From NCBI GenBank assembly GCA_039809675.1, contig JBDHVO010000001.1, positions 1-28,348 on the forward strand: DNA of 28,348 bases, written 5' to 3'. Below are positions 14,159 to 25,574 of the stretch, one piece after another. The notes beneath the pieces are model-generated. The model was not told the origin of the DNA, searched no databases, and worked only from the letters and a program-made list of their open reading frames with translations. A program made the translations under genes and the position numbers. Position 1 is the first letter of the stretch. Every line of letters starts with the position of its first letter. This DNA comes from Proteocatella sp. GTDB lineage: Bacteria > Bacillota > Clostridia > Peptostreptococcales > Filifactoraceae.

Positions 14159-14194
14159 AGGGGTGTTGAAAATTCGACACCCCTGTGCTATTAT
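14159..14194 (+). promoter_or_regulatory. prdR sigmaA promoter overlapped by a palindrome
   Basis: TTGAAA (14166-14171), 17 nt, TGcTATTAT. Palindrome AGGGGTGTTGAA-AA-TTCGACACCCCT (14159-14184). Confidence 0.65.
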
Positions 14195-14212: not shown

Positions 14213-15577
14213 ATGCACGAATACGACTATCTGTGGAAGAGCGTTACCAAGGATTTTATCCTGGACGACCTTGATGAGGCTGTATGCGTTGTGGATAACG
14301 ATGGAACAGTAACAGTTTGGAACAAAAAATCCGAACAGATATATGATATGCCCAAGGATGAAATTCTGGGTAAAAATATGGACGATGTCCTTTATGGGAC
14401 GGTTGTAATGGATGTTCTGCGCTCAGGTGAAGACAAGCAGAATATTTACAAGGCAACCAGAACAGGCTGCAGCATCCTTGTAAAGGCCAAGGTTATCTAT
14501 AAAGACGGGGAAAAAATCGGAGTCATGTGCGTAGACAAGGACCTTAGTGAGATAGATGAGCTAAAAAACCAGGTTGACAGGCTTTATGACAGGATTTCCT
14601 ACTTGGAAAACAAGAACGTCAGTGAATACTCCTCCATAATGATAGGCAACAGTGAACAAATAGAAGACCTCCTGAGAAAGGTCAATAAGGTATCCAAATC
14701 TGATGCCAATATTTTTATAAACGGAGAAAGTGGAGTAGGCAAAAAATCCTTAGCCAGAGAAATTCATGACCTAAGCGGACGAGAGGGGATGTTTATTGAT
14801 GTGAACTGCGGAGCCATCCCAACCGGTATGTTTGATGAAGAGTTTTTCGGAGTCCAAAGCGCAAGCGAAAGCCGGCCCGGCCTTTTTGAGCTGGCTGAGG
14901 GAGGGACCCTCTATTTTGATGAGATAGCCGATATGTCTGTAAAAATGCAGTCAAAGCTCCTAAACGCCCTGCAGAAGCAGCAGATATTCAGGGTCGGAAG
15001 CAAGGAAATGATCCCCTTTCATTGCAGGATTATTTCTGCTACAACAAAGAATATCTATAACCTTGTTGAAAAGGGTGAATTTTTAGAGGACCTCTACTAC
15101 AGGCTGAATGTAATCTCCCTTGATGTTCCTCCCCTCAGAGACAGGGGGTCTGATATTACCCTTTTATCCAACCTCTTCTTAAAAGAGCTGTCTGAAAAAT
15201 ACTCCCTGAAAATCCCCGGCATATCTCCCAAGGTCAGGAATATCCTCCTTGAGTACGACTGGAAGGGCAATCTCAGGGAGCTGAAAAATATCCTTGAGCA
15301 CATGGTTGTAATGTCAGGCGGCAAAGAAATAAGCGAGGATATGCTGCCCTACTTTGTCAGGGACAGCGTGGCAAAATTTGCCAGATCCTACGCCCAGGTA
15401 AATGACCTGGCAAAAAATGTAGCTGAATACGAAAAGCATATAGTGGAGGAAGTCCTAAAAAACACTGACTGGAACAAGTCTCTGGCAGCCAGAAAGCTAA
15501 ATGTGCCAAGAACAACCCTTATGTATAAGATTAAGCAGTATGATCTTGAGGAAGAAAAGCTTAAGAAGAAAAAATAA
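14213..15577 (+). CDS. prdR: PAS-AAA+-Fis HTH (NtrC-like) regulator of proline reductase, lacking GAFTGA
   Basis: N-terminal PAS, GESGVGK, PGLFELAEGGTLYFDEI, DLYYRLNV, WKGNLRELKN, HTH AARKLNVPRTTLMYKIK; directly upstream of prdA. Confidence 0.8.
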   Translation: MHEYDYLWKSVTKDFILDDLDEAVCVVDNDGTVTVWNKKSEQIYDMPKDEILGKNMDDVLYGTVVMDVLRSGEDKQNIYKATRTGCSILVKAKVIYKDGEKIGVMCVDKDLSEIDELKNQVDRLYDRISYLENKNVSEYSSIMIGNSEQIEDLLRKVNKVSKSDANIFINGESGVGKKSLAREIHDLSGREGMFIDVNCGAIPTGMFDEEFFGVQSASESRPGLFELAEGGTLYFDEIADMSVKMQSKLLNALQKQQIFRVGSKEMIPFHCRIISATTKNIYNLVEKGEFLEDLYYRLNVISLDVPPLRDRGSDITLLSNLFLKELSEKYSLKIPGISPKVRNILLEYDWKGNLRELKNILEHMVVMSGGKEISEDMLPYFVRDSVAKFARSYAQVNDLAKNVAEYEKHIVEEVLKNTDWNKSLAARKLNVPRTTLMYKIKQYDLEEEKLKKKK

Positions 15578-15628
15578 GCTCTGGCTCTTATAAATATTTT
15601 TTATATAGAGGCAAAGAAATACTTAATA

Positions 15629-15661
15629 TGTCTGAAATTCGACAGTGGCGAAATTTGGACA
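15629..15661. promoter_or_regulatory. Tandem palindromic operator sites upstream of prdA
   Basis: TGTC-TGAAATTC-GACA (15629-15644) and TGGC-GAAATTTG-GACA (15646-15661). Confidence 0.55.
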
Positions 15662-15746
15662 TATTTTTTTGTTAAGAACAAAAAACCCAAAAAACCATAA
15701 GTTTACAGGGTTTTTGAACAGAGGTTTAAGCACATTCGCATAAAAT

Positions 15747-15792
15747 TGACAGTAATTGGACAGTTGATTAAGTTAATAACGTATCATATAAT
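15747..15792 (+). promoter_or_regulatory. prdA sigmaA promoter with adjacent operator
   Basis: TTGATT (15764-15769), 17 nt, TATAAT (15787-15792); TGAC-AGTAATTG-GACA at 15747-15762. Confidence 0.7.
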
Positions 15793-15890
15793 AGATATAG
15801 AAAAACATTATCAAAAGGCGTAGTTGCTTGACAAAGTGACAAGCAATTATCAAAGATTCAAATTATTTATAATTTTAAAAGGAGGAACAC

Positions 15891-17741
15891 ATGTCAATAA
15901 CATTAGAAACAGCTCAGGCCCATGCTAAGGACCCAGCAGTATTATGTTGTAGATTAGAGGCAGGGAATGTAATAGAAGTTACAAACCTTGAGGACCCTGC
16001 AATTTTCCCAGACCTTGTAGATTCTGGATTAATAGCAATTGATGAGAACACTCTTACAATTGAGGAGGTTCTTGGAGCAAAGCTAATCAAAACTTCTGAT
16101 TCACTTACTCCGCTTACAAGAGAGCTTCTTGAGGGAGTAAAAGAAACAGCAGCAGCTCCAGCAGCAGAGGTAGCAGTAGCACCGGTTGCAGCAGTAGCTC
16201 CAGTAGCTCCAGTAGCAGGAAACGCTGGCGTAGTAAGAATCCATATAGGAGAAGGAAGAGATATTAATCTTGAAATTCCCCTTGGCGTAGCAGCTCAAAT
16301 GGGAGTAGCTCCAGTAGCAGCTCAAGCAGAAGTAGCAGCAGTAGCAGCTCAAGCAGCAGCTCCAGCTGGACAAGAAACAGCAATTAGATCTCTAAAGAGA
16401 AGACATATAAAAATTGACAAGGTAGTATTTGGATCAGAGACAAAAATCGAAGGAACTACTCTTACAATAAGAGAGAACATCGAAACAGAAGCAGTAGCTT
16501 CTCAAGCACTTGTAACTGCAATGAAGCTTGAAATAATCACTCCTGACAAATACAATACTTACTCAGAAACAATCATGGACGTTCAGCCAATCGCAACAAA
16601 GGAAGACGGAGAGCTTGGAACAGGCGTTACAAGAGTAATTGACGGAGTAGTTGTTGTTCTAACAGGAACAGATGAAGGCGGAGTACAAATCGGAGAGTTT
16701 GGTTCTTCTGAGGGAGAGCTTGACAAAAACATCATGTGGGGAAGACCTGGAGCTCCAGACAAAGGCGATATCTTTATCAAAGCTGAAGTAACAATAAAAG
16801 AGCATACAAACATGGAAAGACCAGGACCTCTGGCAGCTCACAAGGCAATGGATTTCGTAACTGAAGAAATCAGACAAGCTCTTAAAAAAGCTGACGAGTC
16901 TCTTGTAGTTAAAGAAGATGAGTTTGTACAAAAGAGAAGACCAGGCAAGAAGAGAGTTCTTATAGTTAAAGAAATCATGGGTCAGGGTGCAATGCACGAC
17001 AACCTGATACTTCCTGTAGAGCCGGTTGGAATCCTTGGAGGACATCCAAACGTTGACCTTGGAAACCTTCCAGTAGTTCTTTCTCCGCTTGAGGTGCTAG
17101 ATGGAGGAATCCACGCCCTTACTTGTATAGGACCTGCTTCAAAGGAAAACTCAAGACACTACTTCAGAGAGCCGCTTGTACTTGCTGCAATGGCTGATGA
17201 TGAAATAGATCTTGTAGGAGTTGTGTTTGTTGGTTCTCCTCAGGCAAACTCTGAGAAATTCTATGTATCAAAAAGAGTAGGTATGATGGTTGAGGCTATG
17301 AATATAGACGGAGCAATCATAACTACTGAAGGATTCGGAAACAACCACATCGACTTTGCTTCTCACCATGAGGAAATCGGAAGCAGGGGAGTTGAAGTAG
17401 TTGGAGTAACTTACTCAGCTGTTCAGGGAGCCCTTGTTGTTGGTAACAAATACATGAAAAACATGGTAGACAACAACAAAGCATCTCAAGGAATTGAAAA
17501 CGAAATTCTTGCAAACAATACTCTATGCCCAGAGGATGCAATCAGAGCTCTTGTAATGCTTAAGACAGTAATGTCTGGAGAAACAGTTAAGGAAGCTGAA
17601 AGAAAATGGAATCCAGCTGTTAAGCAAAACAACATCGAAATGATTGAAAAAGCAACAGGCATGAAGATTGAGCTTGAAGAAAACGAGCAGTCTCTTCCAA
17701 AAAGCAAAAAGAGACTTGAAATATACGAGCCAGAGAATTAA
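15891..17741 (+). CDS. prdA: D-proline reductase proprotein (pyruvoyl-forming)
   Basis: EFGSSEG, GQGAMHDN, DGGIHALT-CIGPASKE cleavage site (Cys412, TGT 17124), EGFGNNHIDF; strong AGGAGG RBS. Confidence 0.96.
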   Translation: MSITLETAQAHAKDPAVLCCRLEAGNVIEVTNLEDPAIFPDLVDSGLIAIDENTLTIEEVLGAKLIKTSDSLTPLTRELLEGVKETAAAPAAEVAVAPVAAVAPVAPVAGNAGVVRIHIGEGRDINLEIPLGVAAQMGVAPVAAQAEVAAVAAQAAAPAGQETAIRSLKRRHIKIDKVVFGSETKIEGTTLTIRENIETEAVASQALVTAMKLEIITPDKYNTYSETIMDVQPIATKEDGELGTGVTRVIDGVVVVLTGTDEGGVQIGEFGSSEGELDKNIMWGRPGAPDKGDIFIKAEVTIKEHTNMERPGPLAAHKAMDFVTEEIRQALKKADESLVVKEDEFVQKRRPGKKRVLIVKEIMGQGAMHDNLILPVEPVGILGGHPNVDLGNLPVVLSPLEVLDGGIHALTCIGPASKENSRHYFREPLVLAAMADDEIDLVGVVFVGSPQANSEKFYVSKRVGMMVEAMNIDGAIITTEGFGNNHIDFASHHEEIGSRGVEVVGVTYSAVQGALVVGNKYMKNMVDNNKASQGIENEILANNTLCPEDAIRALVMLKTVMSGETVKEAERKWNPAVKQNNIEMIEKATGMKIELEENEQSLPKSKKRLEIYEPEN

Positions 17742-18036: not shown

Positions 18037-18762
18037 ATGAGTCTTACAGCAGTAAAAGGACTACAGTCAGAAATATTCGTGCCTGTAACACCGCCACCTG
18101 TATGGACACCTGTTTCAAAGCCGCTAAGCGAAGCAGTTGTAGCTCTTGCATCAGCAGCAGGAATCCATCTTAAAACAGATAAAAGATTTAACCTTGCAGG
18201 TGACTTTACATTCAGATTAATTCCAGGAGATGCAACAGCAAAAGACCTTATGGTATCTCACGGTGGATATGACAACGCTGACGCGAACAAGGACATAAAC
18301 TGTATGTTCCCAATCGACAGAATGCATGAGCTTGCAGCAGAAGGCTTTATAAAAGCATTTGCACCAGTAAACTTTGGATTCATGGGAGGCGGAGGAGACC
18401 AGGACAAATTCGCCAACGAAACAGGACCGGAAATCGCAAGACAGCTTAAAGAAGAAGGCGTAGACTATGTACTTCTTACAGCAGGCTGAGGTACCTGCCA
18501 CCGCTCTGCCGTGCTTGTGCAGAGAGCAATCGAGTCTGCAGGAATACCAACAGTAATCATTGCAGCACTACCTCCGGTAGTTAGACAAACAGGAACTCCA
18601 AGAGCAGTTGCCCCGCTTGTACCAATGGGAGCAAATGCAGGAGCACCAAACGATCCAGTAATGCAAACAGCAATCATCAAGGCTTCTCTAAACGCCATGA
18701 TGGAAATGACAAGTGCTGGACAAATAGTACCACTGCCATTCGAATATATAGCAAAAGTTTAA
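18037..18762 (+). CDS. prdB: D-proline reductase selenoprotein subunit, Sec151 (TGA 18487-18489), 241 aa
   Basis: MVSHGGYD, NCMFPIDR, VLLTAG-U-GTCHRSAVLVQRAIE. Joins track ORFs 18037-18489 and 18511-18762 in one frame. Confidence 0.96.
18490..18527 (+). promoter_or_regulatory. SECIS-like hairpin of prdB
   Basis: CTCTGC (18504-18509), loop CGTGCTTGT, GCAGAG (18519-18524); loop starts 20 nt after UGA. Confidence 0.65.
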
Positions 18763-24251: not shown

Positions 24252-25574
24252 CTAGTCCTGGTCAACAGTTTTTGAAACCTTTAGGGTTCTGTAAAGCGGA
24301 TGGCCTATGGTTCTCATAACATGGTCAGTCTGGTGCATAACCTTTAGTCCCATTTTTGGAGCTGAGCCCATTACAGTATTTGAACAATCTGAACAGTTAC
24401 CTATAACTATATATTCGCACTTGTCCTTTTTAAACTGTAAGCTGTTTTGTACCTGGCCAGGACACTCTCCCGGGCGCTCGCACTTAAGCGGTCCGCCTGG
24501 CTTTGCAGCCACAGCCTGCTTACATTTTGCAACAGAAACAACCTTTGAATTCATCTTTGCTGCAATATCACGCATACGGTTTTCGTCACCGCCGCACGCA
24601 CATATAAGGATTCCCATAGGGGCTCCGTGCAGGTCAGGGAATTCCATTGTAGCAATGATTCCACCTGTTGTTTTTGTAATAGGAGCTTCAAGAGTAGTAG
24701 GCTTGCCTGTGAAAGGTCCTCCCATAATAAGCTCTCCGATTGGCCTGTCAATTAGTCCACCAGAAGCTTCAATAAGGTCTGCTACGCTTGTTCCTATTGG
24801 CACGTCCTTAAAGATTTTGCCTTTTTGAGCATCCTCAACCATTCCAACAACCGTAAGATCCTTGCTGATGCATGGTCTTCTTTCGTCGATTGCCTCAGTT
24901 ATTCTGATAAGAGTCTCTGTATTAAGGACAACTGCGTTGGCAGCAGATGGCAGCTCAGCAACTCCAAGCTCTATTCCGCCAAGGCACTCCCTTACAACTG
25001 CTCTTTCCTCACCCATTGGGTAGATATCAGGCATAAGTCTGATTGACATAGCAGGCTCGGCTTTGATAGCTTCTTTTAGGATTTTTACAGCATTTTCATT
25101 TTTCTTTTTGATGGCAAATATAGCCTTGGCAGCTCCTGTAATATCCATAGCGTATTTAACGCCCTTGATAAGCTTGGCAGTTTGAGTCTCTGTCTGCATA
25201 ATATTATGCTTTAGGCCAGGCTCGCACTCTGCGTCATTAATAAGCACATAACCGCCTTCGATTTTTGTAGAAAGCTTAATAGCGGTAGGGAATCCTGCTC
25301 CTCCCATACCAACAAGTCCTGCTGCCTTTATCATCTCCAGAGGAGTGTCCTCCTTCAGAGGAATAAAAGCATCCTTTTGCTCTTCATCAGGCTTTATAAT
25401 TATACGGTCATCTTTTACTTCAGTAACAAGGCCGTAAACACTTGAATAAATATTGGCACCAAGTCCAGCAGGCTCAGCAACCAAGGTTCCTTTTTCTACC
25501 CTTGCACCAGCCTCAACAACAGGCTTGCATGGTGCACCCACGTGCTGGCTAAGCAGCAACTGAATATCTCTCAT
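24252..25574 (-). CDS. prdC: Proline reductase-associated electron transfer protein (RnfC-like)
   Basis: QHVGAPCKPVV, AGLVGMGGAGFPT, INDAECEP, YPMGEE, GGPFTG, C-terminal CACGG, CERPGECPG and GNCSDC; RBS GAGGAG. Confidence 0.9.
   Translation of the reverse strand: MRDIQLLLSQHVGAPCKPVVEAGARVEKGTLVAEPAGLGANIYSSVYGLVTEVKDDRIIIKPDEEQKDAFIPLKEDTPLEMIKAAGLVGMGGAGFPTAIKLSTKIEGGYVLINDAECEPGLKHNIMQTETQTAKLIKGVKYAMDITGAAKAIFAIKKKNENAVKILKEAIKAEPAMSIRLMPDIYPMGEERAVVRECLGGIELGVAELPSAANAVVLNTETLIRITEAIDERRPCISKDLTVVGMVEDAQKGKIFKDVPIGTSVADLIEASGGLIDRPIGELIMGGPFTGKPTTLEAPITKTTGGIIATMEFPDLHGAPMGILICACGGDENRMRDIAAKMNSKVVSVAKCKQAVAAKPGGPLKCERPGECPGQVQNSLQFKKDKCEYIVIGNCSDCSNTVMGSAPKMGLKVMHQTDHVMRTIGHPLYRTLKVSKTVDQD

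Follow-up and report, generated by a model that had tools for sequence, protein, structure and literature searches.

The 28,348 bp stretch of DNA analysed here (the window) is contig C1 of a 1.2 Mb metagenome-assembled genome of 195 contigs that is 62% complete, and the reads holding its sequence come from activated-sludge DNA runs, with no RNA run among those listed. Its forward strand carries prdR (14213-15577), which was delimited by open reading frame (ORF) and domain searches and encodes a regulator of 454 amino acids. After a spacer of 313 bp (15578-15890) follows prdA (15891-17741, +; TIGR04480, 995.8 bits), the first gene of prdA-prdH-prdB-prdD-prdE-prdF, the operon of D-proline reductase, the enzyme that drives Stickland fermentation. 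This PrdR lacks the GAFTGA loop that marks sigma-54-dependent enhancer-binding proteins, and its neighbouring operon is preceded by a predicted sigma-A promoter in place of the -24/-12 promoter found at canonical prd loci.

The window PrdR comprises a PAS sensor domain (residues 15-107, 14255-14533, placed by domain search and domain conservation), an AAA+ core with its lid, and a Fis-type HTH_8 DNA-binding domain (residues 404-443, 15422-15541, domain search), and is without CBS domains. Residues 143-303 match Sigma54_activat (PF00158) with an E-value of 9e-52 and 175 bits, and AAA_lid_14 was also matched. Walker A (GESGVGKK, 14723-14746) is present. All that is left of loop 1 is the remnant DEEFFGVQSASESRPGLFELA (residues 208-228, 14834-14896), from which GAFTG is deleted: HMMER alignment with the solved NtrC1 and ZraR structures left a 5-residue gap exactly opposite GAFTG, and alignment with canonical GAFTGA-bearing PrdRs left a gap of 6 residues. 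The asparagine of LLNALQ and the leucine of FLEDL (Leu291, 15083-15085) stand in place of arginines seen in 27/29 and 29/29 GAFTGA-bearing relatives, respectively, and ATN is replaced by ATTKN. The Walker B region (TLYFDEIADM, 14906-14935, from alignment) keeps its Asp-Glu as FDEI; the nearest relatives read FEEI or LEEI. The original prediction, made from the letters of the window, had claimed both the loop deletion and altered motifs at GKKSLA, LLNALQ, ATTKNI and FLEDL, and in the alignments all of these proved real.

Family models place the protein near PrdR and outside the other named families. Its top NCBIfam model was TF_PrdR (NF041552), which scored 480.8 bits against a cut-off of 795 and aligned over profile positions 135-577 only; the full CBS-PAS-AAA+-HTH architecture of the PrdR equivalog is not there, as the CBS part is absent. 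The context is that of a PrdR: the gene adjoins the D-proline reductase operon, and TGNY-N8-GACA boxes begin at 15629, 15646 and 15747. The TyrR model (NF008085) reached 229.4 bits against a cut-off of 576 over residues 16-451, and no ACT domain was present, which sets the protein outside TyrR. A PF00158-type AAA+ domain with GAFTGA deleted or defective is the hallmark of atypical enhancer-binding proteins, and the window PrdR has it.

Loop loss is a trait of two genera and some metagenomic lineages, beyond the window's genome alone. All 36 of the closest database homologues (53-82% identity, 450-470 amino acids), Proteocatella sphenisci included, lack the loop, and the next homologues (at most 40% identity, about 580 amino acids, with CBS domains) carry GAFTGA. 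Among species-representative genomes, loop-less orthologues were found in 6/6 other members of the window's genus (g1) and in 4/5 genomes of a second genus (g3), where the copy in genome G008 is identical to the P. sphenisci protein. The PrdR of a third genus (g7), which consists of Acetoanaerobium sticklandii and A. noterae, has 584 amino acids with GAFTGA present. Across 251 genomes sampled from the order, matches of the loop-less type (E <=1e-165) were confined to g1 and g3; other PrdR-like matches in this sample were 36-42% identical and lay mostly in reading frames of about 590 amino acids. A scan of the genome contigs with patterns from the PrdR alignment returned only distant proteins, the patterns being generic enhancer-binding-protein motifs. 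In a maximum-likelihood tree, 47/47 loop-less sequences formed one clade (SH-aLRT support of 100) beside the CBS-type PrdRs, with a long stem (1.05 substitutions per site). The loop was therefore lost in a single event, which rapid change accompanied. Judged by its sequences, the clade is an offshoot of PrdR and no member of the TyrR family.

Other parts of the protein changed along with the loop. The N-terminal CBS region of about 130 amino acids is absent from the loop-less clade, and GAFTGA is missing from 47/47 members, which on this feature probably sets them all, with the window PrdR, outside the sigma-54-dependent class. The Walker B aspartate, present in 29/29 GAFTGA proteins, was retained in only 2/47 loop-less ones (Gly in 30, Ser in 8, Glu in 6 and Ala in 1), of which the window PrdR is one. 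The FREDL and LLRVLQ arginines, counted above for the GAFTGA proteins, each occur in 0/47. The Walker A lysine is kept in 47/47, and the RVG and RII arginines and the sensor-II arginine are mostly retained. Within the clade the AAA+ core is the least conserved part (56%), below the PAS domain (64%) and the HTH (69%, the highest); in canonical PrdRs of comparable overall divergence the order is reversed, with the AAA+ core the highest at 63% and the PAS domain at 44%. Loop-less prdR is under purifying selection, with nonsynonymous divergence (dN) of 0.07-0.25 in every domain and a dN/dS ratio (omega) of about 0.05-0.15 where computable, a value to be read as an upper bound only because synonymous divergence (dS) is saturated in most pairs. 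With Walker A kept, loop-less PrdR probably still binds nucleotide, and the overall pattern suggests that nucleotide binding, sensing and DNA binding were kept while sigma-54 remodelling driven by ATP hydrolysis was abandoned.

The spacer between prdR and prdA (15578-15890) contains no GG-N10-GC and no TGG-N9/10-TGC, nor any match to TGGCAC-N5-TTGCW at <=3 mismatches. It does contain a predicted sigma-A promoter for the prd operon, TTGATT-17-TATAAT (15764-15792, +), with the -35 at 15764-15769 and the -10 at 15787-15792; the predicted start site lies at about 15799, taken as some 7 nt after the -10. That GG-N10-GC is wanting 5′ of prdA and that this -35/-10 pair is there had both been read from the window beforehand, and both readings held, the latter as a pattern conserved in 16 loci. 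Two distal PrdR boxes, TGTCTGAAATTCGACA (box 1) and TGGCGAAATTTGGACA (box 2), stand in tandem, separated by one G and with a period of 17 nt (15629-15661, +), and are the sole such pair in the 1.2 Mb assembly by pattern search. The proximal box 3, TGACAGTAATTGGACA (15747-15762, +), is 101 bp from box 2 and separated by 1 nt from the -35 that follows, which would place it at about -52 to -37. In the window as a whole TGNY-N8-GACA occurs 13 times against 4.7 expected. A further box, TGTTGAAAATTCGACA (box 0, 14164-14179, +), overlaps the -35 and spacer of the predicted sigma-A promoter of prdR itself (TTGAAA-17-TATTAT with TG before the -10, 14166-14194, +; 10/12 consensus positions). The identical 16-mer occurs 5′ of prdR in three related loci (L057, L059 and L043) and was not present 5′ of prdR in other relatives, and box 0 is a candidate autoregulatory operator specific to the window's sublineage.

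In AT-rich DNA a lone -35/-10 match carries little weight, and the scanned region held 8 promoter-like sites of this kind against 4.2 expected. The match in the window gains its significance because it is exactly conserved in related loci. We compared 16 loop-less loci (the window, L041-L050, L055, L057, L059, L145 and L146), which cover every deep branch of the clade, with 8 GAFTGA-bearing loci (L051-L053 from Acetoanaerobium, L140-L143 from other families, and L054). In 16/16 loop-less loci box 3 is followed after 1 nt by TTGnnn, 17 nt and TATAAT, and no -24/-12 element was found in any of them (14 were scanned for TGG-N9/10-TGC and 2 were read). All 16 keep the layout of two boxes plus one, with a period of 17 nt in the tandem pair, and boxes 2 and 3 stand 98-102 bp apart in 13/14 loci measured; in L049 and L050 box 2, placed by eye, is a 16-mer that starts 10 nt 3′ of the prdR stop, at a distance of 99 bp. 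Outside the boxes and promoter, the intervening and flanking DNA is not conserved, so that the elements themselves amount to a phylogenetic footprint. The -35 hexamers of the loop-less prd promoters match the consensus at only 3-4/6 positions.

The GAFTGA-bearing loci are built differently. All 8 combine FLDEI with TGGCAYG-N4-TTGC about 40-90 nt 5′ of prdC, A. sticklandii being among these loci with a GAFTGA PrdR and a -24/-12 promoter. TGTC-N8-GACA boxes, usually as a tandem pair, lie 3′ of prdR in 7/8, and L054 has looser look-alikes only. Four loci (L051-L053 and L141) have a third box 82-103 bp further on, and where it exists TGGCAYG-N4-TTGCT lies 126-137 bp beyond it. TGT-N10-ACA-type sites together with a sigma-54 promoter have been reported for PrdR regulons, and the boxes and TGGCAYG-N4-TTGCT of the canonical loci match that motif class and promoter (PMC6615313). 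Locus L054 (2745-4118, genome G040) is a second, divergent prd-like operon with a PrdA of 50% identity, its own GAFTGA regulator, the frame of which is interrupted by a TAG stop, and a sigma-54 promoter; this operon may reduce a different substrate. Genome G040 also serves as an internal control: its loop-less locus L048 has a -35/-10 promoter, and L054, with the GAFTGA regulator, has TTGGCACGTATTTTGCTT. The comparison of sequences supports the view that loop type tracks prd promoter type, loop-less regulators going with -35/-10 and GAFTGA-bearing ones with -24/-12. The -24 GG/-12 GC element expected before the target operon of a sigma-54 activator is thus missing from the window and present in the 8 canonical loci; by sequence and conservation, the window instead has the -35/-10 type of promoter, with a binding site at or near it, that goes with atypical enhancer-binding proteins.

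Loss of sigma-54 itself does not account for this change. We found rpoN in 5/6 genomes of the same genus and in 26/31 genomes searched, the window's own counted. The window's genome encodes another enhancer-binding protein, its second, in which the loop reads GSFTGA (contig C24, L002:682-2411 of G000) and whose frame is split by a TAG stop into ORFs of 395 and 155 amino acids; the break could reflect a pseudogene or an assembly error. Divergent to the gene of the GSFTGA protein is a cdsB-like gene, and TGGCATTGAATTTGCT lies 28 nt before its ribosome-binding site; further good sigma-54-type promoters occur elsewhere in the genome. Loss of rpoN as the driver of rewiring was rejected, as rpoN and sigma-54-type promoters persist in the lineage; this corrects the original prediction, which had suggested comparing loop loss with rpoN loss. 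Its wider proposal that the lineage had rewired prd control to sigma-A fared better: comparison supports the promoter swap, with a scope of two genera and some metagenomic lineages and of the prd operon only, the rewiring being specific to that operon because sigma-54 is retained.

We propose the following course of events. The ancestor would have been a sigma-54-dependent CBS-PAS-AAA+-HTH PrdR of the kind that Acetoanaerobium, the sister genus, has kept. The CBS region, the GAFTGA loop, the Walker B aspartate and one conserved active-site arginine would have been lost before the window's genus, Proteocatella and a few uncultured lineages split from one another. The PAS sensor, Walker A, the HTH and the old arrangement of operators, with two TGTC-N8-GACA-like boxes in tandem and a third about 99 bp further downstream, would have been retained. 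In place of the sigma-54 promoter, which lay some 130 bp past box 3, TTGnnn-17-TATAAT would have arisen with its start 1 nt after that box. PrdR bound at box 3 (about -52 to -37) would then recruit or stabilise sigma-A RNA polymerase in a class II-like manner, as VpsR does at vpsL. Looping of the DNA may let the distal pair raise occupancy, and the response, presumably to proline, would be governed by the PAS domain. The box over the -35 of prdR suggests autorepression in the window's sublineage.

We hold with moderate confidence that loop-less PrdR belongs with the atypical enhancer-binding proteins, resembles VpsR or TyrR in its mode of action and activates the sigma-A promoter from box 3. 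Activation is favoured by descent from an activator, by the inherited layout of the operators and by -35 hexamers that match the consensus poorly. Anatomy, conservation and the correlation with promoter type were observed; from them we infer which sigma factor is used, in which direction PrdR regulates and what its ligand is. Several points weigh against this proposal. The promoters were assigned from sequence. The correlation of loop with promoter is phylogenetically one observation, as there was one loss event, although long-term conservation backs it. The search for rpoN did not find the gene in the window's own 62%-complete genome. With the Walker B Asp-Glu retained, it is less certain that the window protein has lost ATPase activity than that its clade has. 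Lastly, a perfect -10 together with TTG in the -35 could make the promoter fairly strong without an activator, which fits repression as well.

PrdR might instead repress the sigma-A promoter or regulate it both ways, in the manner of NtrX or of TyrR acting as a hexamer. An oligomer would bridge the distal pair and box 3, loop out the intervening 100 bp or so and block the -35 until the PAS domain senses proline. With a consensus -10, a 17-nt spacer and TTG at the -35, an activator may be unneeded; the conserved spacing of 98-102 bp between boxes 2 and 3 suggests looping, box 0 sits over the -35 of prdR in a repressor-type position, and repression by atypical enhancer-binding proteins has precedents in NtrX and TyrR (PMC6158489). 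Yet box 3 ends 5′ of the -35 and covers neither the -35, the -10 nor the start, which is the position from which VpsR activates (-31 to -52). Moreover, ancestral PrdR is an activator according to PMC6615313, which cites Bouillaut 2013, and the two-plus-one layout was inherited from it unchanged. The -35 hexamers, with 3-4/6 consensus positions, also sit poorly with a promoter that needs no help. In our judgement a repressing or dual role is unlikely.

Another alternative is that loop-less PrdR is a decaying relic without a regulatory role and that prd is expressed constitutively from the sigma-A promoter. Its catalytic residues are indeed degraded and its AAA+ core is the least conserved domain, but the reading frames are intact in 47/47 proteins, dN stays at 0.07-0.25 in every domain although dS is saturated, the PAS and HTH domains are highly conserved, and the three operator boxes keep their sequence and spacing across the loop-less loci; this reading is disfavoured and we regard it as very improbable. 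The most strongly disfavoured reading, that PrdR still acts via sigma-54 through an unrecognised contact or a degenerate or distant -24/-12 promoter, with TTG-17-TATAAT incidental, could draw on rpoN in most genomes of the genus, on the 175 bits scored on PF00158 and on the Walker A and Walker B Asp-Glu of the window PrdR, but is scarcely credible given the absence of -24/-12 elements from 16 loci and, at <=3 mismatches, from the window, the deletion of GAFTG, the loss of the Walker B aspartate and FREDL arginine across the clade, a -35/-10 invariant at a fixed offset from box 3 amid diverged DNA, and the pairing of each regulator type with its own promoter type in G040.

The arrangement of the prd genes in the window is itself unusual. 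In relatives the order is prdR-prdC-prdA-prdH-prdB-prdD-prdE-prdF, and the regulated gene after prdR is prdC in most of them; the direct junction of prdR with prdA is special to the window's sublineage. Here prdC is missing between the two genes, so the promoter at box 3 precedes prdA directly, and the same junction was found in two independent metagenome contigs (L057 and L059). A PrdC (TIGR04481, 615 bits) is encoded on the opposite strand at 24252-25574 (-), as a single frame of 440 amino acids. It is only 44% identical to the PrdC of relatives, against 70-88% for the other Prd proteins, which suggests that prdC was relocated or replaced by a foreign copy. The region 5′ of this prdC was read for PrdR boxes or a -24/-12 element and held nothing convincing. 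In L041-L053 about 100 nt of strongly conserved, coding-like sequence directly follow the prdC stop, which fits a selenocysteine (UGA) near the PrdC C-terminus.

Downstream of prdA in the window are a small prdH-like ORF, prdB, prdD, prdE, the proline racemase gene prdF, a TauE/TSUP transporter gene and proS. An in-frame stop at 18487-18489 divides prdB into an ORF at 18037-18489 and a same-frame segment at 18511-18762, the latter matching PrdB profile positions 157-238, and the stop is presumably a selenocysteine codon. Between the promoter and prdA the leader carries a conserved motif, GACAAGCAATTATC (15838-15851, +), preceded in the window by a short inverted repeat, TTGCTTG...CAAGCAA. The motif is also present in L057, L059 and L041-L044, with 1-2 changes in some, and was not found in the same-genus loci L045 and L046. 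Searched against Rfam, neither the window nor the prd leader gave a match at threshold; a match to an S15 leader was dismissed at 15.3 bits, where 39.5 are needed.

The accepted model of prd control by sigma-54 and PrdR was drawn from C. difficile and, on the sequences compared here, appears not to hold for Proteocatella and its relatives. Database names such as 'sigma-54-dependent' or 'sigma-54 interacting' are probably wrong for the whole loop-less clade. Work on the transition from sigma-54 activator to sigma-70 or sigma-A regulator usually deals with proteins that diverged long ago, such as TyrR and VpsR; the present case is valuable mainly because one regulator, operator and operon coexist in sister genera in both their ancestral and their derived states. 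Because both states regulate the same operon, the order of the changes (loop, Walker B, CBS region, promoter) and their effects on function are testable by swapping parts. We give an even chance to the fuller picture. It would be an in-place swap from a sigma-54 to a sigma-A promoter, with both states surviving in sister genera and within one genome. An enhancer, made of a pair and a site about 99 bp off, would have been turned into a class II-like activator site with looping sites, and the AAA+ ring would serve as a nucleotide-binding, non-hydrolysing scaffold. This would also be the first atypical enhancer-binding protein of the Firmicutes with an identified target promoter.

Among known systems, canonical PrdR (C. 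difficile CD3245; A. sticklandii WP_013362446; NF041552) is the best family match and the evolutionary parent. In C. difficile prd depends on both SigL and PrdR (PMC6615313, PMC9130780, PMC12069270), in agreement with the description of PrdR there as a sigma-54-type activator in the original prediction, and prdB and prdF fall about 700-fold in a ΔrpoN strain (PMC12069270). The window PrdR shares with the canonical protein its position 5′ of the prd operon, the TGTC-N8-GACA operator in a two-plus-one layout and a PAS-AAA+-HTH_8 core of 37-42% identity. It differs in having no CBS N-terminus of about 130 amino acids, no GAFTGA and no FREDL or LLRVLQ arginines, and most of its clade is also without the Walker B aspartate; its target promoter is a -35/-10 next to box 3, in contrast to a -24/-12 about 130 bp away.

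TyrR and PhhR (E. coli, Pseudomonas) regulate sigma-70 promoters of amino-acid genes from 'boxes', by activation or repression, and resemble the window PrdR in their PAS-AAA+-HTH architecture and lack of GAFTGA (see also PMC3162934). The window PrdR differs from them in having no ACT domain, in its operator and in its descent from PrdR. The label 'TyrR-like' attached to it earlier is apt in that the protein is atypical and loop-less, but it does not belong to the TyrR family (229 against 576 bits), and VpsR is nearer mechanistically. Enhancer-binding proteins of the atypical, sigma-70-using kind also include HupR, HsfA, NtrX, VpsR, DhaR, the NtrC proteins of R. capsulatus and Caulobacter and probably B. 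subtilis YplP, besides TyrR and PhhR (PMC3162934, PMC6158489). In these GAFTGA was lost or changed and sigma-70 dependence has been shown or proposed (PMC3162934, PMC6158489). Those that have been characterised come from Proteobacteria or Myxococcus, YplP of Bacillus being uncharacterised at promoter level. None of the published cases considered (PMC3162934, PMC6158489) was set against a sigma-54-type orthologue that controls the same operon in a sister genus, and our literature search found no paper linking PrdR to GAFTGA loss. The kind is established, and by sequence loop-less PrdR falls outside all of its families.

VpsR of Vibrio cholerae (PDB 7v2b) appears to be the nearest mechanistic analogue, and its structure was among the PDB matches of the window PrdR (E-value of 1.9e-36). 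VpsR is without GAFTGA, has ND in place of the Walker B DE and, from a site at -31 to -52, activates sigma-70 RNA polymerase in a class II-like manner (PMC6158489). Both proteins have a sigma-54-type AAA+ domain lacking GAFTGA, a site just 5′ of the -35 and a further distal site, and Walker B is degenerate in VpsR as in most of the loop-less clade (PMC6158489). VpsR differs in its receiver domain and response to cyclic di-GMP, where the window PrdR has a PAS domain, and it is proteobacterial, with an unrelated operator and an independent origin.

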